Source: a virus. From it: DNA of 33,862 nt. Below are positions 1 to 33,862 of the stretch, piece by piece. The stretch is from the IMG/VR virus record IMGVR_UViG_3300045988_082433, one strand, 5' to 3'. The notes under the pieces are model-generated. The model made no database searches. It was not told the origin of the DNA and was given only the letters and a program-made list of their open reading frames with translations. Within the stretch, counting starts at the first letter, position 1. Each line of letters starts with the position of its first letter. A program made the translations under genes and the position numbers.

Positions 1-87
1 TACACGGGTCACGTTATTGTATGCGTTTGTAAACATAGTAAGGAACCAGGTTGCCACCAACGCCAGGGCATTTTTAATGTCCTGCCA
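1..87. repeat. Terminal overlap of a circular assembly (identical to 33776..33862)
   Basis: Checked base by base: tacacgggtcacgtt...aatgtcctgcca is identical at both window ends (87 nt). The overlap keeps the tape measure reading frame. Confidence 0.9.
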
Positions 88-13057: not shown

Positions 13058-13978
13058 TTACGCTTCCTCAATGGCATATTCTCTTTTACGCCGCTTGCAA
13101 TCTTCCAACATGGCTTCTAAAATCCCCACTTCCTCTTCATTCAGCCATGTATAATATTTTTCAATCATCTTTACGGCATGAAGCTTCCGGGCATTTTCCT
13201 TTTCCTCTTCGGTTGTGTCGGTATCTGACACATTGGCTTCCCTGGTTTCCTCTTCCTTGGTTTTTCTGCCTTTCTTCTCTTCGGTCATTGCCCTTATTTC
13301 TTCCGCACCCACTCCACCTTTGCTTTCGGATGCCTGGGCAATCTCTTTTTGTGTTTCCTCGTCTGCCTTTGATGCTTCCAGGGCTGCCGTAATGCCCATA
13401 TTGCCTTTCTGGAACTGCTCTTTTACTTCCTGTGTGGCGTTTCCGTCTATGGTGTTTAAGTCCCTTATCTTCGGCACTGTTTCCCCCATGGCCGCCGCCA
13501 CATAGTCCCGGACCCTTTCCCCGGCTTCCAGAATTAAAAGCCCCTCTTTTCTTGCCTGGGTCAAAACCTCTTTCCATTCTGCCGCCTGTGTCATAAGGTC
13601 ATAGTCTGTCATTTTTCTGTTAAACGTATTTCCTACCAAAAGGGCAATTCTAAATTCTGTTTCTGTCATCTGCTTATATCTGCATTTGACTGTTTCAAAG
13701 GCTTCTTTCCCCTCTGCCACAAGAATATTTAATGCGGCCATGCGGCGGTGTCCAGAAATAAGCCAGTATTCCCCGTTTATCTGCCCTAAAACAAGTGGTT
13801 CCTGCAACCCGTCCATTTCAATTCCTGCCGCAAGGTCTTTCAATCCGTCCATGCTGTATTTATTATGTTTTGTCACAACAATGTCCCGGATGCCTAACGT
13901 GATTTCCTGGTATTCGTTGTTTTCCCCTGCTGCCGCTTTGGTTGTTGCATTCATAAGGTCCATGATGTTAAATGCCAT
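13058..13978 (-). CDS. parB: ParB/Srx-domain partition-like protein
   Basis: EPLVLGQINGEYWLISGHRRMAAL is a ParB N-terminal GxRR box. Directly downstream of a ParA ATPase. Acidic C-terminal tail. Confidence 0.75.
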   Translation of the reverse strand: MAFNIMDLMNATTKAAAGENNEYQEITLGIRDIVVTKHNKYSMDGLKDLAAGIEMDGLQEPLVLGQINGEYWLISGHRRMAALNILVAEGKEAFETVKCRYKQMTETEFRIALLVGNTFNRKMTDYDLMTQAAEWKEVLTQARKEGLLILEAGERVRDYVAAAMGETVPKIRDLNTIDGNATQEVKEQFQKGNMGITAALEASKADEETQKEIAQASESKGGVGAEEIRAMTEEKKGRKTKEEETREANVSDTDTTEEEKENARKLHAVKMIEKYYTWLNEEEVGILEAMLEDCKRRKREYAIEEA

Positions 13979-13983
13979 TTTTT

Positions 13984-14787
13984 CTATCTCCTTTCCTCTG
14001 CTGCCAGATGCCCAAACTTTTGCACATATTCTTCCGTAAACGCTTTGTAATCCTGGGCGGCTCCACTCCTTACGCTGTAATGTGTCGGTGTCTGCCTGTA
14101 AAATGTGGCATCCTTGGCCTTTTTGGAATGTCTGATTTTACACTGGAACACATGACAGCCGCTTTTTGTTCTCAACCACCTTTCTGCCGCTTCGCTTGTA
14201 TCTGATTTTTCAAAATCTGTAATGAGTACCCCGGCAATCCTGGCCTTTGGATTTAACGCCCGTATCTGGTTTATCTGCTCCACCAGTTCTTCCAGGCCGT
14301 CCAGGGAATAGGCATCTAAGCGGACGGGTATTATAATTTCATGCGTTGCCACCATAGCATTTATCACATTCATTCCTAAATCCGGCGGATTGTCTATAAT
14401 GCAATAATCATACTGCCCGGAAACTTCATGCAATGCAGATTTATAACGGTCATGCTGTGCGTGTTCTTTATCCGCCTTTATTTCCAATTCCGCCAATTCC
14501 ATGAAATAATTACACGGTACAATATCCAGATTTTCTTCTTTCGTGTCCCGGATATTCCCAGTAATCCGCCCCGTCTTAATAATCCGGCACGCTTCCGCTT
14601 CCCTCTCTCCGTTGTACACTCCAAACATTCTGGATGTATTTCCCTGCTTGTCATTGTCAAACAATAGAACCCTGCTGCCTTTGCGTTTTCTCCGCCTGTC
14701 CCCCTCTGCCAACAATTCAGCCAATGAAACGGCGGTTGTGGTCTTTGCAACTCCGCCTTTTAGGTTGATGACTGATATAATTTTCAT
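13984..14787 (-). CDS. parA: ParA/Soj-type partition ATPase
   Basis: MKIISVINLKGGVAKTTT is a deviant Walker A motif; DNDKQGN and IIDNPP are also present. The track ORF starts at TTG 14814; ATG 14787 is preferred. Confidence 0.85.
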   Translation of the reverse strand: MKIISVINLKGGVAKTTTAVSLAELLAEGDRRRKRKGSRVLLFDNDKQGNTSRMFGVYNGEREAEACRIIKTGRITGNIRDTKEENLDIVPCNYFMELAELEIKADKEHAQHDRYKSALHEVSGQYDYCIIDNPPDLGMNVINAMVATHEIIIPVRLDAYSLDGLEELVEQINQIRALNPKARIAGVLITDFEKSDTSEAAERWLRTKSGCHVFQCKIRHSKKAKDATFYRQTPTHYSVRSGAAQDYKAFTEEYVQKFGHLAAEERR

Positions 14788-14810
14788 GTTTTCGTTTCGC
14801 TCCTTTCGCT

Positions 14811-15683
14811 TCAATTCCGCACCATACGGGCGTATATGTAAAATGCCGCATTGATACCGTTGTATTTAACCTCTGCATCCAGAAATTCATATCCTGGATA
14901 TGCCTTTTCTAACTGTTTTTTTAATGTGTCAAAATTCTTTACCATTCGTTCCACCTGGCTTTTTTTGAATTTTGAATAACTTCGCTTTGGTTCCGGCGGC
15001 TTTTTGAGGTTCTTTGACGGGCACCACCGCTTTGTCCCATGTGGGTTTTGTGTGATATATGTTGCCAGTCCTGTAAGTAAAAATTTATCATCCGGCATGA
15101 TCCGTCTTGTGTTTGGTCTGTCACACTTTCCCCATAATTTTTCTAACTGGTCCCTGTCTATTCCGTCCCCAGAAATCAGAATGTGGAAATGCGGACGCTT
15201 GTACCCGTCAAATGCCAGGATATAAATATACTTTGCATTTTCCAATCCTGCTTTCTTTCTCCTGCGGTTGATACGCTTAATGAAATTCGTTATGTCCTTT
15301 CTTGCCCGTTCTACGCTGTCCGGCAAACAATCATCATTCCACCCAAACGTGGCCCAAATATCCCCTTTCCCAAAATTGATATTTGCCAGGCGTATGATAT
15401 ACCGCCTTGCGTTCTTGTCGTTTAGGTTGCTTTGTGACGGCCTGGTTTCTCTCTTTTTCTTCGTCACTGGCATATCCGCTTTATTCGTGAATGACGGGTA
15501 CACCTGGGCTTCCAAAAGGGTTGTTCCACTCTTTATGTTCTGGGACTTCGTTGTTGTTGTGCGATAAAGGCACGCCACCTTTCCGTCTTTCATCAACTTT
15601 TCCAATTCCCATTCTTCTAACTTCTCGCATTGCTTCTGGTATGCTTCCTCATAATCGTAATTATCATAAAAGCGTTTCTTCAT
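14811..15683 (-). CDS. HUH-type rolling-circle replication initiator-like protein
   Basis: 290 aa. KRPHFHILISG is an HUH motif and GLATYITQNPHG is a candidate catalytic Tyr motif. First gene of the rep-parA-parB operon after a 402-bp intergenic region. Confidence 0.5.
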   Translation of the reverse strand: MKKRFYDNYDYEEAYQKQCEKLEEWELEKLMKDGKVACLYRTTTTKSQNIKSGTTLLEAQVYPSFTNKADMPVTKKKRETRPSQSNLNDKNARRYIIRLANINFGKGDIWATFGWNDDCLPDSVERARKDITNFIKRINRRRKKAGLENAKYIYILAFDGYKRPHFHILISGDGIDRDQLEKLWGKCDRPNTRRIMPDDKFLLTGLATYITQNPHGTKRWCPSKNLKKPPEPKRSYSKFKKSQVERMVKNFDTLKKQLEKAYPGYEFLDAEVKYNGINAAFYIYARMVRN

Positions 15684-16388: not shown

Positions 16389-16708
16389 TTGTTGTCCTCG
16401 CATTTCCAATAGTATTCATTTATAATCAGCATTTCTTTTGACATTAAAAGCGTCACGCCTAAAGGAACCGTTAAAAGTGCAATCGTGGCATCCCCGTTTA
16501 ATATCTTAACTGCCACCGCCGTAAAAATTAGAATTGCCACCCCATACAGTTTTTGGGTCAGAAAGTATTTTTTCTTTTCCCTCTTCTCTTTTATGGCTTG
16601 TTTTCTTCTTTTTTCATGTTCCACCGCTTCCAGATACCCGGCCATGTATGCTTCCTCAATCAATACCTGGTCCGGCCCATTGCTTACCCTCTGCAATTCT
16701 GCCGTCAT
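16376..16708 (-). CDS. Membrane protein (hypothetical)
   Basis: The probable start is ATG 16708 (MTAELQRV) behind the recurrent GAAAGCGAGGAAACTTAAC cassette. Two predicted TM segments (LYGVAILIFTAVAV, IALLTVPLGVTLL). Confidence 0.5.
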   Translation of the reverse strand: MTAELQRVSNGPDQVLIEEAYMAGYLEAVEHEKRRKQAIKEKREKKKYFLTQKLYGVAILIFTAVAVKILNGDATIALLTVPLGVTLLMSKEMLIINEYYWKCEDNKCNL

Positions 16709-19288: not shown

Positions 19289-20576
19289 TTATTCCTCGCT
19301 TTCTGCTTTCTTTATCCCTATAAAAACACGCTCCGCACATGGTACGGCTATGCTGTTTCCCAGTGCCATATAACGGGCATTGTCGGACATTTCTTTGCCG
19401 CTTGCCCCGTACCTTGTCCAATAATCCGGGAAGCCGTCCAGACGTTCACATTCAAGCGGCGTAAGGCGGCGGACACGGTATTTTACTACCCTTGCAATCC
19501 GTTCCATTATCACGGCCAATGTTTCACTTCCACCCCCGGCGGCTCCACGGCTCCGCTTTAATGTGCCCACCCCCTCTTTCCACTCCGCAAATCCGCTTTG
19601 TGCGTATGCTATGGCGTGTCTGTCTGCCCCTGTCAATGTCGGTGCAACGTCCTTGTTTATGCCTGTCTGGTTTCCGCCGTTGCTACTTTTCCGGCCAATC
19701 ACGTTTCCGGCAATCGTATAAACAGGCAAAAGATAAAGCCCTGTTTTCCCACCGCCGCCCCCGGCACGTCCCATAAGTGTTACGCTCTTTGTGGCATTTA
19801 TGTAAATTCTGTCTGCGGTTCGGCCAAAATCTAATTTCATTTGTCCGCCTGGTTCCTCTGCCATTCCTCTGCAATCCGTTCCAACAACGCTATTTTCAAT
19901 ATGGTTGGGATTTCCTTTTGCTTCTCCTGTGCCCTGCGAATGATACCCCAACACGCTTTCGCACTCAAAAAGTATTTGTCCGGCACGTCCGCTTCCAAAA
20001 TCGCTGACAAGGTAGATACGTTTTCTACGTTGGGGCACTCCCCAAAATTGAGCATCAAGCATCCGCCATGCGGTACACTGAACCGCCCCCCCCTGCTCTC
20101 TCAATTCCAACCATTCCGGCATTTGCCCATTTTCCACTTTTAGGCATTGGAATGTTGCTTTCTGTGATTTCTTCCAGGACCCGGCGGAAATCTTCGCCTT
20201 TATTGCTTGAAAAAGCCCCGGCCACATTTTCCCATATAATGTACTTTGGATATTCTCCATTTGTCTTTTTCCTCATTTCCCTTACTATCCGCACCGCTTC
20301 CATAAACAGGCCGGAACGGGCACCGTCAAGCCCCTTTTGTCCCCCTGCAACGCTTAAATCCTGGCAAGGGCTTCCAAAACTGATAATGTCAACCGCCGGA
20401 ATACTTCCCCCGTCAATCTCGGTAATATCTCCCAGGTTCTCCGCATCCGGGAAGTGCCGCTTTGCTATCTCTATACAATTCGCTTCAATCTCGCTTATCC
20501 ATACGGTCTTTATTCCCTGCCGTTCTGCTGCCAGTGGAAAACCTGCGATACCGTCAAAAAGGCTTCCCAGTGTCAT
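19289..20576 (-). pseudogene. DNA (cytosine-5)-methyltransferase, interrupted by a 1-nt frameshift in a G8 tract
   Basis: ORF 20055..20576 carries FDGIAG, GSPCQDLS and ENV. ORF 19289..20260 carries QRRKR, RRLTPLECERLDGFP and GNSIAVP. The two frames fuse into one 428-aa ORF if the C8 run at 20086-20093 (G8 in sense) is read as 7. Confidence 0.85.
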
Positions 20577-20594: not shown

Positions 20595-21179
20595 TTAATT
20601 CTTCATTTTCATGTATGCCGCTTTTTCTTCCTTAGTAAAGAAAACCGCCCGTGTTGCTATTCCTGCATTATCCAGTTTTTCTTTTATATTTCTGGTTTCC
20701 ATGCGGTAAAAATTTTCTCTTACACTTCCGCAAGGTTCTGTATAGTCCAACGGCTGTGCTTTTGTGTCCAAAAGGTCTTTTAAAATCCTGGCTGTGGTTT
20801 CTCCATACTGCCGGAAAACTCCCCTTTCAATAAATGTTTTTTGCCAAATAAACAATTTGAACCCCAGGGCTTTTTCCACCGCTTCCAATTTTCTTTCCAC
20901 ATCCGGGTTCGTGCTTAACGGTCTATATATCCAACTTTCCTGCTGCCGTATTGCTTCTTTCTCTGGTTTCTTTGCTTCTCCTACCTCTTCAATGAAAATA
21001 AGTGCTGAATACTCAACCTCGTGCCCCACAATTTCTTTCCCTCTCATTTTAGGAACTACCGCCGTTTTGTACTGCGTGCATACTTGCTGTAAAAATGGTG
21101 CTTTTGAGTTTTCAAATTCTCTGTTTATTTTTTCTGCCAGTCCGTCTATTGTGGTATCTCTTAATATTTTGGCTTTCAT
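20595..21179 (-). CDS. Hypothetical protein
   Basis: 194-aa ORF with an ATG start behind the recurrent AGCAGGAAAGCGAGGAACTTAAC cassette. Confidence 0.55.
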   Translation of the reverse strand: MKAKILRDTTIDGLAEKINREFENSKAPFLQQVCTQYKTAVVPKMRGKEIVGHEVEYSALIFIEEVGEAKKPEKEAIRQQESWIYRPLSTNPDVERKLEAVEKALGFKLFIWQKTFIERGVFRQYGETTARILKDLLDTKAQPLDYTEPCGSVRENFYRMETRNIKEKLDNAGIATRAVFFTKEEKAAYMKMKN

Positions 21180-21208
21180 GTTAAGTTCCTCGCTTTCCTG
21201 CTACTGTC

Positions 21209-21391
21209 TTAAATCGTCCTCTGTGCTACCTCTGCCCTGTACGGTTCGCCGCCACGCTTCATTTCATTGTAAATAGTCGCTCTATGCACGCCCACCGCTT
21301 CCGCAATCTCTGTAACCCTTGCCCCGGTTTTAAGCATCTTTTCAATCTTTTCCCTATCTGCAAAGGTCAGTCTTTTGTTTCCTTTTCTCAT
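21209..21391 (-). CDS. Small HTH protein resembling the N-terminal HTH domain of IS30 transposases
   Basis: The probable start is ATG 21391 (AAAGGTGGA SD). MRKGNKRLTFADREKIEKMLKTGARVTEIAEAVGVHRATIYNEMKRGG parallels the transposase N-terminus LTQSDRIKMETMLNSGHTPEEVAKYLGVHRTTVWRERKRG. Confidence 0.6.
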   Translation of the reverse strand: MRKGNKRLTFADREKIEKMLKTGARVTEIAEAVGVHRATIYNEMKRGGEPYRAEVAQRTI

Positions 21392-21423
21392 GTTTTCCAC
21401 CTTTCTTTCTGTTTTTTTTGCAA

Positions 21424-21470
21424 TAAAAAAAGAGTGCAACAAGAGTTTTTTATTTCTCTTGTTACACTCT
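21424..21470 (-). terminator. Strong intrinsic terminator / attenuator hairpin (IR-A)
   Basis: Sense RNA AGAGUGUAACAAGAG-AAAUAAAAAA-CUCUUGUUGCACUCU forms a 15-bp stem with one G-U pair, followed by UUUUUUAUUG. It lies 33 nt before the HTH gene start. Confidence 0.65.
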
Positions 21471-21486
21471 CTCGATTTAATTTATA

Positions 21487-21527
21487 AATCAGATGCAACA
21501 ACTTATTTACTCTTGTTGCATTTGATT
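21487..21527. repeat. Inverted repeat IR-B (aatcagatgcaacaa N11 ttgttgcatttgatt): operator or RNA hairpin
   Basis: 15-bp arms with one mismatch. It shares the TGCAACAAG core with IR-A and with a fifth copy at 21560-21569. It overlaps the -10/+1 of the 21525..21554 promoter. Confidence 0.6.
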
Positions 21528-21554
21528 TTACAACTTACCCCTATATTTTGTCAA
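21525..21554 (-). promoter_or_regulatory. Sigma-70-type promoter TTGACA-N18-TAAAAT
   Basis: Sense strand CTATTGACAAAATATAGGGGTAAGTTGTAAAATC, 29 nt downstream of the transposase stop. Confidence 0.55.
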
Positions 21555-21582
21555 TAGTTATGCAACAAGTTTTTCAAAAAAA

Positions 21583-22617
21583 TTATGCCAGTTTCCTTAT
21601 TTCCTCTTCAAAGAGTTTTGCCGCTGTTTGAAACTCAAAAATCCCCCTTGGATAATTATTTATCCAGGTTTCTATATATTCAATGTCCCTGTCCTGTTTT
21701 TCGTCAAAATCTTCCCCTTTTGGAATATGGCGGCGGATTAGTCTATTTGTGTTTTCATTGCTTCCACGTTCCCAACTACTGTATGGATGACAGTAAAACA
21801 GAAATGTTCTTTTCTCTCCTGGGTGTATTGCTGACTTTTCCAGGCCGTCACAATCCGAAAATTCCACGCCGTTATCAACCGTAATGCTTCTGAATATGTT
21901 TTTGAACATATCGCCCCATTTCCGTTCTATTCTGTCCAGGGCATCCACCACGCTTTCTGCTTTCTGGTCCTGCAATTTTACTATTATTTCATTTCTGGTC
22001 TTTCTCTCTGTCAAAACAAGCATACAGGACTTTGTTACCCCTCTTTTGCCTTTCACGGTGTCCATTTCCCAATGTCCAAACACTTCCCGGTTTTCCACCT
22101 CTTCCGGGCGTTTTTCAATGCTCTGCCCTGCTGCCGCCCGTTTCTGTACCTTTACTTTTTTATTGTGTTTCTTTCTCTTTCCTTTCACTGGCAAGTCCTT
22201 ATTTGTCAATTTCAGAAAAATGCCGTCATCAATATACCTGTAAAGTGTCCGCACACTTATGGTTGTTTTAAATTCAATTCCGCTTTGTGCCACTGCTGCC
22301 AGTGCGGCTTCCGGGCTGTATTTATCATTCACAATCTTATTTTCTATATACTCCGCAAGCGGCAAATCATTTCCTATTTTAATACTTCGCCCTTTTCCCT
22401 GGGCGTTCCAGTCATGTGCCTTTTGCCCTAAATCACTGCTGTAACGTATCTCTTCTGTGTAGTCGCTATTTCTGTGTGTATAGGCTCCCCTTTTTCTTTC
22501 TCTCCAAACGGTTGTTCTGTGTACTCCTAAATACTTTGCTACCTCTTCCGGCGTATGCCCGGAATTTAACATGGTTTCCATTTTAATTCTATCGCTTTGT
22601 GTTAAGTGTTTTCCCAT
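21583..22617 (-). CDS. IS30-family DDE transposase
   Basis: 344 aa with an N-terminal HTH, HWEMDTV (D), ITVDNGVEF (D) and the IS30 signature PYSSWERGSNENTNRLIRRHIPKGEDF (E). Confidence 0.9.
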   Translation of the reverse strand: MGKHLTQSDRIKMETMLNSGHTPEEVAKYLGVHRTTVWRERKRGAYTHRNSDYTEEIRYSSDLGQKAHDWNAQGKGRSIKIGNDLPLAEYIENKIVNDKYSPEAALAAVAQSGIEFKTTISVRTLYRYIDDGIFLKLTNKDLPVKGKRKKHNKKVKVQKRAAAGQSIEKRPEEVENREVFGHWEMDTVKGKRGVTKSCMLVLTERKTRNEIIVKLQDQKAESVVDALDRIERKWGDMFKNIFRSITVDNGVEFSDCDGLEKSAIHPGEKRTFLFYCHPYSSWERGSNENTNRLIRRHIPKGEDFDEKQDRDIEYIETWINNYPRGIFEFQTAAKLFEEEIRKLA

Positions 22618-22679
22618 GTCAAATTCCTCGCTTTCTTCTATCCCCCTTGATTGTACTTTTTATTTATATTGCATTGTTA

Positions 22680-22937
22680 TGGGCGTTGTGGGGTCCAGGC
22701 TCCCAGTTCTATATTTTGATTAGGACGGTTCCCAACCGCCCAGGCGTGCCGCCTGTTTGCCTGTCCTGCTTGCACGCCGCCCGGTTCTCATTAAACCCTG
22801 GCTGTAACTTGTCAACCTACACCGCAACGCCCACCATTGCAACCCGTCAACTGTTTATAGGGGCTTCGGACCCTCACGCCGCCCATGGACAACGTGGCCG
22901 TTTTAATTGCCGGGCGGCGTAGTTGCCGCCCTTTCTG
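22680..22937. other. GC-rich ORF-free structured island (candidate ncRNA, long structured 5' UTR, or cis-acting DNA site)
   Basis: About 59% G+C by my hand count of 22681-22940, against AT-rich flanks. No credible ORF on either strand. Dense complementary segments are listed in the findings. Confidence 0.5.
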
Positions 22938-23132
22938 CTATGCACAACGGGCCTGTTCAACCCATTTCTTTGCTTCCTCTTCGCTTCCAAACCAATCATT
23001 ATAAATGTCTTTTCAGCTTGTGTTTGTGTATGTGCTTTCTGGGCACTCTTCCGCTTCTTTTGTTGCTGTAATTGCCGCTATGGCTCTTCCTCTATCATCA
23101 AATGAAGATGTTACGCAATACCATGTTTTCAT
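22938..23132 (-). pseudogene. Small conserved-looking ORF interrupted by an in-frame TGA (codon 38 of 64)
   Basis: My translation is MKTWYCVTSSFDDRGRAIAAITATKEAEECPESTYTNTS*KDIYNDWFGSEEEAKKWVEQARCA. Both halves are in the same frame; the TGA is at 23013-23015. AAAGGA SD upstream of ATG 23132. Confidence 0.5.
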
Positions 23133-23176
23133 AATATCGTCCTTTCTTGCGACACATTGGCCGCCCTGGTTCCTGC

Positions 23177-23374
23177 TTATTCTGTTTTTCCCATTCGTTC
23201 ATCAATTGCCTGGTTTATAAATTCATTTACGCTTTGCCCTGCTGCCTTGGCCGCTTCCTTTATTACTGCCTTTTTCCCTTTTGGCACCTTAATTTCTATA
23301 CGGTCATAATTCATTTTGTTGTATTCATTTTGGTACGCAATCTGGTTAAACTCTCCGCTTTTTGTTCTTGGCAT
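23177..23374 (-). CDS. Ribbon-helix-helix (Arc/CopG-like) DNA-binding protein
   Basis: 65 aa. A beta strand (DRIEIKVPKGKK) followed by two helices (AVIKEAAKAAGQSVNEFINQAIDERM). Confidence 0.6.
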   Translation of the reverse strand: MPRTKSGEFNQIAYQNEYNKMNYDRIEIKVPKGKKAVIKEAAKAAGQSVNEFINQAIDERMGKTE

Positions 23375-23497
23375 TTTCTCAACCTCTTTCTATTCTGGCA
23401 AATTCACGCTTCCTTTCTCTTGCCAAATGGTGTATAATTTCTTTTAACAGATTGGGCGGCTTTGGCAAGTCCACCGCCCTTTCTGAACCCCTAAAGC

Positions 23498-26627: not shown

Positions 26628-27680
26628 CTATGCCGGAATTGCAATGCCGCTTTCCGTTTGTTCCCATTCCCAGAATAACAATTCATATTCAATGGCCTTT
26701 GTAAGGTGGTAGGTGTCAGCGTGTCCCATATGTCCTAATCTGCTTTGATATTTCTTTTCAAACTCTACACGTTCCAATTCCCCGGCTTCTAATTGTTTTA
26801 CGTTCTTCTTTAACTTCCGCACGGATGCTTTGCGAACCTTTTTATATTCCGGGTGGTGGATATATCCGCAAAAATCAATCCCGTTTCCGGCATATAAAAT
26901 GGTACTTTTGGGATTTATTTGTAACTCCATTTCTTTTTCTAAAAATTCTTCTATCCGTTTCCGCCATTCTTTCAACTGTTCCAGGTCTGCGGAAAGTATT
27001 ATAAAATCATCCATATATCTGATGTAATACTTTGCGTGTAAGGTATGCTTCACAAACTTGTCCAGTTTATTCCCATATACATTGGCAAATAACTGGCTTG
27101 TAAGATTTCCAACTGGTATTCCTACACCGTCCGGCAGTATTCCGTTTTTATCAATAATACCATCCATTAAATACAGGGCTTTCTTGTCCCCTATGTATCG
27201 CCTGTTTTCTTCTTTTAATTTATCGTGTGGAATTGATGCAAAATATTTGTGTATATCCCCTTTAAATCCATAAAGCCGCAATCCCTCTTTTATCATCAAT
27301 TCATACATCCATTGTGATAACTGTTCACTTGCTGCGTGCATCCCCTTTCCCTCACGGCAAGCATAAGAATGATAATAAAAGCCCTGTTCAAATACTGGCC
27401 CTATGATATTTACAATCATGTGCTGCACTACTCTGTCATAAAACGGCAGTGCCATGATTAACCTTTCTTTTGGTTCCCACACTTTAAATATGGTGTATGC
27501 TCCCTGGGTGTATGTAAGGTTTTTCACTTCCTCGCACGCTCTCAAAAGTTCCTCTTCCTTTGACATAGAAAAAGCCAATACTTCTTTGCTGTACCGCTTG
27601 CATTTTGCGGCCTTTCTAAAAGAAGTATTGGCATTGTCAAAGGTGTGCATTTTCTCATGTAATCCTTTAACTGTTTTCAT
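26628..27680 (-). CDS. DGR reverse transcriptase
   Basis: GIPVGNLTSQLFANVY (DGR-type motif 4), YIRYMDDFIIL (YxDD). About 350 aa, adjacent to TR and avd. The track ORF starts at TTG 27701; ATG 27680 is preferred. Confidence 0.9.
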   Translation of the reverse strand: MKTVKGLHEKMHTFDNANTSFRKAAKCKRYSKEVLAFSMSKEEELLRACEEVKNLTYTQGAYTIFKVWEPKERLIMALPFYDRVVQHMIVNIIGPVFEQGFYYHSYACREGKGMHAASEQLSQWMYELMIKEGLRLYGFKGDIHKYFASIPHDKLKEENRRYIGDKKALYLMDGIIDKNGILPDGVGIPVGNLTSQLFANVYGNKLDKFVKHTLHAKYYIRYMDDFIILSADLEQLKEWRKRIEEFLEKEMELQINPKSTILYAGNGIDFCGYIHHPEYKKVRKASVRKLKKNVKQLEAGELERVEFEKKYQSRLGHMGHADTYHLTKAIEYELLFWEWEQTESGIAIPA

Positions 27681-27844
27681 AATTGCCCTACCAATTTTCA
27701 AATACTCTTCTACTAAAAGGCGGTGCCTTTGTTATTTTGTCCAGGTGTGCCCCGGAACGGGAAAACCGTCTGACTTATCGAAAAAAAATAGATAAATCTT
27801 TGCCAGTAACAAATAATGTTTCTGTGCCTGTAATATACTGATTA

Positions 27845-27972
27845 GTCACACACGCACCACACGCCAATGTTCGTGTTCACGTTCCACGGGTAATTGTTGC
27901 AATTGACGGCCCGTGAACCGCAATACACGCCGTTGTTCCAATTGCCGCCGCCAATGAGGGCGTGCAAGCCAG
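27845..27972 (-). repeat. DGR template repeat (TR)
   Basis: 128-nt gapless match to 28489-28616 with 16 mismatches, all at TR adenines (sense). In the VR frame it contains nine AAY codons. Confidence 0.92.
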
Positions 27973-28010
27973 GAAAGGCCCGGTGCGAATTAACAGTTTC
28001 CCCATATTTC

Positions 28011-28427
28011 TTATTTATCCGGCTTCCATGTTCCGGCCTTTACCGCTTCAATTATTCCGTTTAGCGTACTTCCTATTGCTGTTATGTGTCTGCTTATGAC
28101 CTCATAACGGTGTTTGCTCATTGCTTTATAATTCATTCCCTGCAAATTCAAATCATACGAAAGCCGCACCAGGGTTTTTATAAACTGCAACTCTATATCC
28201 GCCGCATATAGGTGGCTTTTTGTTCCTGTTTTCTTGAAACGGATTAAATCCTTTAACATTTCAAATATGGCCGTCTTAATCTGCGTCTGCAATGCGAACT
28301 TTTCAAACTTTGGAAATTGTGCCAATATTGGATAAATATATAAAAGAAATTCATATGTCTTTTGGTATGCTTTCATACTTTCCATATAGGCATCAATTTG
28401 TTTTTCTGGTTTCTTTTCTGCCGCCAT
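28011..28427 (-). CDS. avd: DGR accessory variability determinant (Avd, four-helix-bundle protein)
   Basis: 138 aa. YQKTYEFLLYIYPILAQFPKFEKFALQTQIK...LVRLSY is typical of the Avd / 23S-IVS four-helix-bundle family. It lies between the target and TR. Confidence 0.85.
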   Translation of the reverse strand: MAAEKKPEKQIDAYMESMKAYQKTYEFLLYIYPILAQFPKFEKFALQTQIKTAIFEMLKDLIRFKKTGTKSHLYAADIELQFIKTLVRLSYDLNLQGMNYKAMSKHRYEVISRHITAIGSTLNGIIEAVKAGTWKPDK

Positions 28428-28447
28428 TATTCATTTTCCTTTCCATG

Positions 28448-28474
28448 TTGGGGTTGGGCTTTCGCCCACCCCAA
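28448..28474 (-). promoter_or_regulatory. GC-rich hairpin with GAAA loop just downstream of VR (DGR homing-enhancer-like)
   Basis: Sense strand TTGGGGTGGGC-GAAA-GCCCAACCCCAA forms 11 bp with one bulged A. It starts 14 nt after the VR end, between the target stop and the avd start. Confidence 0.6.
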
Positions 28475-28479
28475 CGGGA

Positions 28480-29580
28480 TTACAGACTGTCACACACGCA
28501 CCACACGCCAATGCCCGTGTCCACGCCCCACGGGCAACTGCTGCAACCGACGGCCCGTGAACCGCAACACACGCCGTAGAACCAATAGCCGCCGCCAATG
28601 AGGGCGCGCAAGCCAGTGCTTGAATACATCCACGCTTGACCGTAACCGCCGCCAAATATATCATACCAGGCACCAGATGCCGCCGTTGGGTCATGCATCA
28701 ACTCATTCAACCACTTCCAGACATTTCCCACCAGGTCGCAAATATTTAATGCACTGACAGCATTTGCAATTTTCCCCACTGCCGTTCTGGCCTTATTGGT
28801 TTTCGCTGTCCACCCATTTGCATTGGAATTGTCAAGGCCCTGTGGGCTTCCGTCTGCTGCCACTGTAAATTCCATGTAATCCGGCAACCTTTTTCCTACA
28901 CGTCTTGCACGTTCTCCGGCAATATACCAGTTAAGTCCCTCGGTTCCTGTAATCGGTGTGCTATTATACACGGACTGTAAGCCGTTGGCTCCGTCATCAC
29001 TGGAAAGGTAAATGTCCCCCCATAACGCATTTCCCAGGTAGACCATGCCGGACGGGTCGCATTTTGGACGGTGTTTTGTTGTCCATACGGAATTTGGCAG
29101 AATATCCACACGGGTATTACTTTCCCAACCGCTTCCCCTTACGGACCCGGAAGTGTTTATGGCTCTTCCGTGTTCGTCTGTATTACGCACTCTTCCATAG
29201 TGGAATCCGCCAATTTTCCTTGTATTGGTATCGTCCCAGGTTTCCCCGTCCGGGAATGTGGAATTTAAGGAAATCAAATAAACTTCATCCTGGCTGTTTG
29301 TTCCTGGGTCGCAAATATATATATAATAATCCTTTCCATGTTCAAAATCTGCCCCCTGATCCAAGTTTGCTTTTGTTAATGCTTTTTCTACTGTCTTAAA
29401 TACTGCGTTTTCTCCCACGGCAATGACGCATCCGGCCAGTACGGTAACTTCCCCCTTATTGGTGTACTGTATATACTGTTTTTCCGGGGCTACAATGTCA
29501 GAAACGGCGGCCATTTTGGCAACTGTGATTTTTGCCCTTTCATCCACCATGTTTTCATCATAAATAAATAATCTGCTCAT
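28480..29580 (-). CDS. DGR target protein with C-terminal C-type-lectin/FGE-sulfatase-like variable domain (probable receptor-binding protein)
   Basis: 366 aa. RLPDYMEF...GNVWKWLNE...GGGYW..G..CGSR....C.....W......IG.WC is the Mtd-like CLec scaffold, carrying VR. It is the last gene of the tail module. Confidence 0.85.
   Translation of the reverse strand: MSRLFIYDENMVDERAKITVAKMAAVSDIVAPEKQYIQYTNKGEVTVLAGCVIAVGENAVFKTVEKALTKANLDQGADFEHGKDYYIYICDPGTNSQDEVYLISLNSTFPDGETWDDTNTRKIGGFHYGRVRNTDEHGRAINTSGSVRGSGWESNTRVDILPNSVWTTKHRPKCDPSGMVYLGNALWGDIYLSSDDGANGLQSVYNSTPITGTEGLNWYIAGERARRVGKRLPDYMEFTVAADGSPQGLDNSNANGWTAKTNKARTAVGKIANAVSALNICDLVGNVWKWLNELMHDPTAASGAWYDIFGGGYGQAWMYSSTGLRALIGGGYWFYGVCCGSRAVGCSSCPWGVDTGIGVWCVCDSL
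28489..28616 (-). repeat. DGR variable repeat (VR), 3' end of the target gene
   Basis: See TR. It encodes LRALIGGGYWFYGVCCGSRAVGCSSCPWGVDTGIGVWCVCD and ends 6 nt before the stop codon. Confidence 0.92.
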
Positions 29581-33145: not shown

Positions 33146-33862
33146 TTACCCCCTTTGTACTGCTAAAATCATGCTTCTTGTCTGTAATCTGGTTTGTCTT
33201 GCTACTTCATAAGGGCTTAACGCTTTTGGGCTTGAAATATTGATTGTCTGGCTATATCCGCCCTTTCCGCTTCCTGTGTTTTCCAGACTTCGGTTTCTGG
33301 CTGAACCTGTCAGCGGCGTAACAACTGCCTTTCCGTTTACCATGCTTAAAAGTTCCGGTCCGGCTTCTGCTACCATGGCCGTTCCCTCTCGCAACACTCC
33401 GCCCTTTGCCAAACGTGGCAATGATAATTCCCCGATACTTCCCAGGGAAACTCCTGGTATTTTATTGATAATTCCAATTACTCCATTTATCATGCGGATA
33501 AACTTATTTACAACGCCCTCTATTGTGGCAAGACAGGAATTGATTGCCGACTTAAAGGCATCCCCTACCGCTGAACCAATTTTTACGCCAACATCCACAA
33601 AACAGCCTTTTATCTTATCCCATAAACCAGAAAAGAAAGAAGTCACATTTGCAAAGGCGTTTTTAATATTGGTCCATGCGTTCTGAAACTGCGTGCCAAA
33701 CCACTGCGGCACTGCTGCCAGTGCGGTTTTAATTTCTGTCCACCTGGCACCGAACCAGGAACCAATTGTCGCAAATACACGGGTCACGTTATTGTATGCG
33801 TTTGTAAACATAGTAAGGAACCAGGTTGCCACCAACGCCAGGGCATTTTTAATGTCCTGCCA
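33146..33862 (-). CDS. Tail tape measure protein, C-terminal part (joins 1..2364 across the circular junction)
   Basis: The open frame runs to the window end, and its phase matches 1..2364 through the 87-bp overlap. Stop at 33146. Confidence 0.85.
   Translation of the reverse strand, partial: WQDIKNALALVATWFLTMFTNAYNNVTRVFATIGSWFGARWTEIKTALAAVPQWFGTQFQNAWTNIKNAFANVTSFFSGLWDKIKGCFVDVGVKIGSAVGDAFKSAINSCLATIEGVVNKFIRMINGVIGIINKIPGVSLGSIGELSLPRLAKGGVLREGTAMVAEAGPELLSMVNGKAVVTPLTGSARNRSLENTGSGKGGYSQTINISSPKALSPYEVARQTRLQTRSMILAVQRG

Follow-up and report, generated by a model that had tools for sequence, protein, structure and literature searches.

How does a temperate phage enter the chromosome of its host if it encodes no integrase, and what is a transposase doing in its genome? 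The question is raised by positions 21209-22617 of a 33,862-nt virus sequence (IMG/VR record IMGVR_UViG_3300045988_082433, the whole of which is referred to here as the window), where the gene of a 344-amino-acid (aa) IS30-family DDE transposase lies next to a gene for a separate 60-aa helix-turn-helix (HTH) protein. From the letters alone, the original prediction had taken this transposase to be a resident enzyme of the phage and not a recently acquired insertion sequence (IS). Our analysis leads us, with high confidence, to a more specific answer: the whole 33.8-kb phage acts as one giant IS30-type element, and the transposase is its integration enzyme.

The genome had been described as a closed circle, and this is borne out by two observations. 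The first 87 bases of the window (1-87) are identical to the last 87 (33776-33862), an exact overlap that lies inside the tape-measure gene, and the tape-measure open reading frame (ORF), of ~1000 aa, continues across the window ends. The overlap is an assembler mark of circularity and not a biological terminal repeat; the true length of the circle is 33,775 bp. Pfam, NCBIfam and PHROGs scans covered the ORFs of at least 150 aa together with the neighbours of the 21209-22617 locus. Within this set the Pfam scans gave no Phage_integrase, Resolvase or Recombinase domain, and a tyrosine or serine integrase, said to be missing from the entire circle, was found with none of the three collections.

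The transposase gene (21583-22617, minus strand) closes a unidirectional array and has its 3′ end directed outwards from the prophage. The protein matches the NCBIfam profile NF033563 with 231 bits (cut-off 80) over profile positions 2-266 of 267, and phrog_4646 over its full length (E 6e-137). Pfam places an HTH_38 domain at residues 2-43 and an rve domain at residues 178-254, and the catalytic triad is intact, with D186 in HWEMD, D248 in TVDNG and E283 in SWERGSNENTN. The identification of this ORF as an IS30-type DDE enzyme is thus well founded.

The ends of the element were defined by the points at which integrated copies leave the circular sequence. Ten right-end chromosomal copies match the window until ...CTTGTTGCATAACTATTGACAAAATATA and then diverge, at 21542. 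In ten contigs encoding the identical 60-aa protein, the phage starts at GGTAAGTTGTAAAATCAAATGCAACAAG after unrelated host DNA, with its tip at 21539. Twenty-five further metagenome stretches agree with these positions, and in all of the unique integrated left ends (20/20) unrelated host DNA gives way to GGTAAG or CGTAAG. Each tip opens a terminal inverted repeat (IR) of 28 bp. The right, transposase-proximal repeat (21542-21569, tip at 21542) reads TATATTTTGTCAATAGTTATGCAACAAG on the plus strand from the tip inwards, and the left one (21512-21539, tip at 21539) reads as the GGTAAGTTGTAAAATCAAATGCAACAAG just given, on the reverse complement. The two repeats are imperfect, with 18 of 28 positions identical, and have in common an identical inner 10-mer, ATGCAACAAG. 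They bound the prophage: the intact, outward-reading transposase gene abuts the right repeat, its stop codon 41 nt from the tip, and the inward-reading 60-aa HTH gene abuts the left one, its ORF starting 148 nt from the tip. In the circle the two repeats abut each other, 13-70 nt downstream of the transposase stop. The original prediction had seen no terminal repeats within ~150 bp on either side of the gene. This was right insofar as no IR pair brackets the transposase, and we found no copy of the IR or of its inner 9-mer upstream of the gene either, but it overlooked the abutted repeats downstream of the stop; the junction of the kind that it had proposed to search for is present at 21512-21569. 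An AT-rich 14-nt inverted repeat (21479-21492/23210-23223) was considered as an IS boundary and rejected, its left arm lying beyond the prophage junction. When species-representative genomes were scanned with a degenerate IR pattern, a single locus came up.

Circular copies were recovered by pattern scans of viral and metagenome contigs. In seven circular contigs of the phage (the window and six more) the junction reads ...AAAATATA-NN-GGTAAG..., where NN is GG in the window (21540-21541, in the transposase sense) and AA, CA, AA, TT, AT and TA in the others. These two nucleotides lie outside both ends and vary between circles. Relatives with 75-86% identical transposases, whose tips were placed by alignment to the window phage, provided ~17 further junctions, and the two repeats were always separated by 2 variable nt. 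At the right tip, two integrated copies (L011 and L029) have ...AAAATATC where the others have ...AAAATATA, which may be a tip mutation or imprecise joining; L029 is also devoid of the TTGAC target motif described below.

This anatomy is close to that of IS30 of E. coli, which moves by a copy-out/paste-in pathway through a circle with its IRs abutted at 2-bp spacing (PMC9333248). Common to both are an HTH plus DDE transposase, imperfect IRs of ~26-28 bp, the 2-bp spacing in the circle and a target preference that includes IR-like sequences. Of the marks of an IS30-type element, imperfect IRs of 20-30 bp and the 2-bp circle spacer are both present, whereas a 2-3 bp target duplication and an element consisting of the transposase gene alone (~1-1.5 kb) are not: IS30 is 1.2 kb long and duplicates 2 bp, while the window phage measures 33.8 kb and duplicates 15-16 bp. 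The invariant 2-bp spacer ties the phage to the IS30 circle pathway. The first HTH of IS30 may contribute to hot-spot targeting, a point on which none of our conclusions draws. An IS30 transposase has served as the integration machinery of a tailed temperate phage before, in a synthetic construct: according to PMC12823448 and PMC5883640, Kiss, Szabo and Olasz replaced the integrase of lambda by it in 2003. Following the IS30 model, the transposase of the window phage would bridge both prophage ends, and a circular copy with a 2-bp-spaced IR-IR junction would be copied out, the 2 bp being taken from flanking host DNA. The IR-IR junction would then be the active insertion substrate; its tips would be cut, the 2 bp discarded and the circle pasted into a new target. 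In other respects the phage would replicate and be packaged like an ordinary tailed phage, with its rolling-circle (RCR) Rep, TerL, portal and capsid proteins.

If the transposase belongs to the phage, it should travel with it. The identical protein is indexed in 2,693 blocks of a public contig collection, and in all ten chromosomal copies that were examined (identical protein, long bacterial contigs) the gene stands at a prophage edge with tail, diversity-generating retroelement (DGR) and lysis genes upstream; none is a solitary IS. Downstream of the ten copies stand unrelated host genes, among them rpsU, infC (twice), rpmE, motA and a GH31 gene. The translation-initiation region of the transposase gene (22618-22639, minus strand; GAAAGCGAGGAAtTTgACATG) contains a cassette, AAGCGAGGAA, which occurs five times in the window, each time on the minus strand and against 0.12 occurrences expected, ahead of the starts at 16708, ~19283, 20576, 21179 and 22617. 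That the transposase and neighbouring phage genes are initiated from one cassette, as had been noticed earlier, is therefore confirmed. The gene is also syntenic: it is kept at the same place in Clostridium phage Saumur (ON453901.1), where the transposase is 77.5% identical, in Faecalibacterium phage FP_Lagaffe (56%) and in dozens of viral contigs (48-86%), and no relative with an empty site was met. Judged by sequence identity and profile match, the protein is closest to the transposases of Saumur and Lagaffe and to phrog_4646, and it may belong to the phage-specific sub-clade of the IS30 family in which IScream transposases are placed (see below); genuine IS copies in phages share no more than 31-36% with it. 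The attachment to the phage in ten out of ten copies, the synteny and the position of the whole phage between the IRs all argue for a resident integration enzyme.

Saumur resembles the window phage most closely at its ends. Its record is opened exactly at the homologous IR tips, and it has the 60-aa HTH gene, two palindromes, the promoter hexamers considered below and the same order of lysis module, transposase, junction and HTH gene. It differs in its length (47 kb) and in the inner 9-mer of the repeat (TGCGACAAG, versus TGCAACAAG in the window), and the rest of its DNA is essentially unrelated. Lagaffe (Cornuault et al. 2018; PMC5883640) was reported as a large temperate phage that forms virions, is flanked by direct repeats and has an IS30-family transposase as integrase. 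It likewise has the order lysis module, transposase, HTH DNA-binding gene, and a DGR; it differs in that it was described as a 48-kb myovirus and in that its downstream HTH protein has 106 aa. Furthermore, the IScream phages (Wirbel, Hickey et al., Nature 2025; PMC12823448), 22 of which are given for that study's own data and 1,780 as candidates in MGV, are portrayed in its main text as prophages with a full, outward IS30 transposase at one end and a truncated, inward IS30 gene at the other; one of them, in Blautia hansenii, circularises spontaneously and yields particles. As far as that text describes them, they share with the window phage the lack of a classical integrase, an outward transposase within 1 kb of the end and an inward truncated ORF without catalytic domain, and they are phages of gut Clostridia with varied host contexts and circular forms. 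The shortest inward ORF mentioned, 183 nt, has the length of the one in the window. By this description the window phage has every architectural trait of the IScream class and does not differ from it in kind. An IS30-driven lysogeny module in a siphovirus, considered unusual by the original prediction, is consequently no longer so (Cornuault 2018, PMC5883640; Wirbel/Hickey 2025, PMC12823448): phages of this kind have been known since Lagaffe in 2018 and the IScream phages in 2025, and the window is one more member. The paper on a Clostridium clostridioforme LM41 prophage, which was also considered, does not deal with IS30 phages.

We then consider where the element lands. Integrated copies were found at many unrelated host sites. 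Three pairs of ends on the same contig (L004/L014, L007/L018 and L008/L020) are flanked by 15-bp direct repeats of host DNA, all of different sequence, and one pair from the same sample (L034/L044) by a 16-bp duplication. These repeats are target duplications of the transposition type and do not represent a shared att core. A precedent for long duplications is provided by IS1630 of Mycoplasma fermentans, an IS30-type element that duplicates 19-26 bp (PMC2853133); those of the window phage are distinguished by not being palindromic and by their fixed distance from a TTGAC motif. In the 18 unique right flanks of the window phage, an exact TTGAC stands at +27 from the right tip in nine cases and nowhere else within 60 nt, and an A-tract occupies positions +18 to +22. 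When the relatives were included, at least five of the six nucleotides of TTGACA were found at +25..31 in 19 of the 28 unique flanks, as compared with 0-3 in control windows, and 18 of the 28 have a -10-like hexamer 16-18 nt beyond. At 10/10 loci the host gene downstream reads in the direction of the transposase gene. On the left (HTH) side of the insertion sites, no conserved motif was found. The targets are therefore not random. At the level of sequence, the transposase end is shown to land in one orientation and just upstream of the -35 element of host sigma-A-type promoters, with 26 nt between it and a TTGAC(A) that follows an A-tract, so that host genes keep their core promoters.

Such a preference could also be the mere survivorship of harmless intergenic insertions, with no recognition by the enzyme. 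The sites are indeed mostly intergenic and the host core promoters intact, but survivorship does not explain why the distance is fixed at 27 ± 1 nt and the orientation strict, nor does it account for an insertion within the reading frame of a response regulator (...DLILLDIMMPGMDGF...), which has TTGACA at +27 and no -10 element; the missing left-side motif does not fit it either. The intragenic site favours direct sequence recognition, and we regard survivorship as an unlikely cause of the pattern. Moreover, the target pattern A5-N4-TTG matches AAAAACTTGTTGCA, the inner motif of the right repeat, in register. This suggests that the enzyme's own IR-binding domain picks the targets as pseudo-sites, much as IS30 targets IR-like sequences. 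The selection is thus probably made by the sequence-specific DNA-binding domain of the transposase itself.

The joining of the ends produces a promoter-like sequence that exists only in the circular form (21525-21554, minus strand). Its TTGACA (21554-21549) is contributed by the right end and its TAAAAT (21530-21525) by the left end, with an 18-nt spacer. With 11/12 matches, it surpasses every other promoter-like site in 21150-23450. It faces the 60-aa HTH gene and the long minus-strand array, and both hexamers are kept in Saumur and other relatives though the tip sequences differ. The circle junction of IS30 activates expression of its own transposase. In the window, on the contrary, the transposase gene ends at the junction and the promoter would point away from it and drive the HTH gene and the array, and would do so only as long as the phage is circular.

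Two palindromes built on the inner 9-mer of the left repeat, TGCAACAAG, lie between this promoter and the HTH gene. The first (21486-21528) combines the 9-mer of the repeat with an inverted second copy, in 16-nt arms that are 94% complementary, and is a candidate protein-binding site or operator. The second (21421-21470, minus strand) has 15-nt arms (93%), is followed on that strand by a run of seven T and is located just upstream of the ribosome-binding site of the HTH gene. Its predicted RNA fold has an energy of -40.3 kcal/mol (z = -7.9), it is conserved in relatives, and it is terminator-like or operator-like. In Saumur and relatives an equivalent palindrome is built from their own 9-mer, TGCGACAAG, and in Saumur every copy has this form, in an unchanged architecture. 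When changes in the HTH helix of the transposase were set against the A/G variant of the 9-mer, L075 mixed both.

The 60-aa protein (21209-21391, minus strand; phrog_11420) is encoded by the first gene inside the left end and consists of a stand-alone HTH_38 domain (E 6e-12). It is 47% identical over 47 aa to residues 3-49 of the transposase, in agreement with the earlier view that it mimics the N-terminal HTH of that enzyme. Of the 12 sequences examined, seven have an intact ORF: the window, Saumur and five viral-contig relatives. The search did not locate a start codon in the remaining five, of which three have GTG at the corresponding position. Since the ORF, where identified, is intact, of the same length and has an invariant helix, GVHRATIYNE(M/L)KRGG (all seven), it is maintained and not decaying. 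As for its function, the protein may repress the junction promoter and/or act at the left end as a competitor or cofactor of the transposase, a proposal that we make with low confidence. It would bind the 9-mer palindromes between the promoter and its own gene, and in this way regulate the promoter and/or compete at the left end. Of the two roles foreseen by the original prediction, that of a regulator (or of a competitor at the shared 9-mer sites) seems the more likely; a directionality factor is not required in an IS30-type copy-out/paste-in pathway.

The presence of IS30-derived coding sequence at both ends, in direct orientation, recalls a composite transposon, in which two IS30 copies mobilise the phage and the inner one is decaying. 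This is the framing of the IScream study, whose main text mentions variable, truncated or fused inward copies (PMC12823448), and it is a plausible evolutionary origin. As a description of the present element it is improbable: there are only two terminal repeats and no inner IR next to either of the IS30-derived genes, neither of which could move alone, and the small ORF has the constancy just described in lineages whose transposases are 14-25% apart.

A third element of the locus lies upstream of the transposase gene. A probable type-P1 twister ribozyme (22840-22909, minus strand) was found 222 nt upstream of the ATG. It matches RF03160 over the full model (1-68) with 46 bits, below the gathering score of 67.2, and with an E-value of 2.7e-7 for the whole window; at gathering thresholds Rfam gave no match in the window, and the twister was detected with E-value thresholds only. 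The core nucleotides UAA, GCC, GGUCC.AAGCCC, UAAA and GA.GG are present. The surrounding stretch (22618-23176), between an Arc/RHH-like gene and the transposase start, is GC-rich and has no minus-strand ORF of at least 50 aa. Of 15 sampled relatives, 5 also have a twister upstream of their transposase gene, and the six homologues are 94% identical with one compensatory pair only. No twister match was obtained in Saumur or Lagaffe, and DNA homology to Saumur ends at the transposase start; its absence from these two phages shows that not every module of this kind includes the ribozyme. A possible role would be to cleave late read-through transcripts upstream of the transposase gene. Taken together, these features allow a fuller mechanism, which we put forward tentatively and somewhat short of favouring it. 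The enzyme would read promoter architecture, inserting 34 kb, in one orientation and with a 15-16-bp stagger, at a point 26 nt before an A-tract plus -35 TTGAC; the junction promoter would sense the state of the phage; and the twister would insulate the transposase from the late operon.

Several points weigh against these interpretations. Between six and nine of the 28 sites have no good TTGACA, and the 15-16 bp duplication, compared with 2 bp in IS30, implies another geometry of strand transfer. The 91-kb contig OLPL01000046.1 (L038/L043) has a left and a right end and no shared duplication; a chimeric assembly across two sites, two prophages, or recombination between copies are possible explanations. 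ParA, a ParB-like protein and Rep may allow maintenance of the circle outside the chromosome as an additional lifestyle. What we propose for the small HTH protein is a guess, and it is by analogy with IS30 that we infer the copy-out/paste-in pathway, the source of the 2-bp spacer and an active junction promoter.

Two further explanations fare worse. A Mu-like phage that replicates by repeated transposition would likewise use a DDE enzyme, insert at multiple sites and duplicate its targets, but it is hardly tenable here: the domain scans gave no MuA/MuB-type protein, a rolling-circle Rep (phrog_3584) and TerL are encoded by the phage itself, its genomes assemble, when free, as clean circles whose ends meet in the 2-bp junction and carry no variable host DNA, and Lagaffe packages from a cos site (PMC5883640). 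A recent hop of an ordinary IS30-family IS into an integrase-less or defective phage, for which one can cite the bona fide IS30-family protein and true hops in GenBank phages (IS983 in bIL311 and an attP-splitting element in phiPV83, 26-31% identical to the window protein), is scarcely credible and is already refuted by the junction data, as the whole phage lies between the two IRs, the gene is not flanked by an IS-sized IR pair with a 2-3 bp duplication, no 9-mer lies upstream of it, the ten chromosomal copies of the identical protein are attached to phage genes, and the gene is syntenic down to 56% identity with a start region that uses the phage initiation cassette.

The remaining gene content is that of a tailed phage with a few additions. 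The array is nearly all on the minus strand, and the scans identified capsid, Clp-type prohead protease, portal, TerL, VRR-NUC, C5 methylase, endolysin and siphovirus tail proteins, as well as ParA, a ParB-like protein, the RCR Rep and the reverse transcriptase (RT), Avd and mtd proteins of the DGR. A plasmid-like module (13058-15683, minus strand) is present in this integrating phage and comprises the rolling-circle-type replication initiator (14811-15683, minus strand; phrog_3584), ParA (13984-14814, minus strand; AAA_31) and the ParB-like protein (13058-13978, minus strand). The DGR (26628-29580, minus strand), with RT at 26628-27701, Avd at 28011-28427 and an mtd-like target at 28480-29580, adjoins the tail genes, likewise in Lagaffe and Saumur; in one relative (L008) the Avd gene is duplicated. 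The C5 cytosine methylase (19289-20576, minus strand) is represented in the window by two overlapping ORFs of 173 aa and 323 aa. It is whole (428 aa) in L013 and L018, and other near-identical copies are split at other positions; the splitting could be due to assembly error, decay or phase variation. Directly after the 60-aa HTH gene lies the gene of a 194-aa protein (20595-21179, minus strand), which has the initiation cassette of the transposase and is kept in all integrated copies examined; it gave no match in Pfam, NCBIfam or PHROGs.

In the main text of the IScream report, IRs, target, integration or insertion sites, direct repeats, promoters and intergenic positions are not mentioned, and duplication occurs only for structural variants (PMC12823448). 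With respect to that text, the IRs, the 2-bp junction, the 15-16-bp duplication, the promoter-proximal target and the junction promoter appear to be additions. The mechanistic addition is modest, but the anatomy of the ends gives a sequence rule for prophage boundaries and insertion sites in an abundant group of gut phages, and it turns the statement that such a phage probably uses IS30 into specific, testable predictions. If the proposed reading of promoter architecture is true, the phage would possess a built-in safe-harbour rule, valid for every host whose promoters are of the sigma-A type. A target that is a generic promoter feature and no host-specific attB suggests that settling in taxonomically distant hosts is possible, and the rule may account for the unusually broad host contexts reported for the IScream phages.

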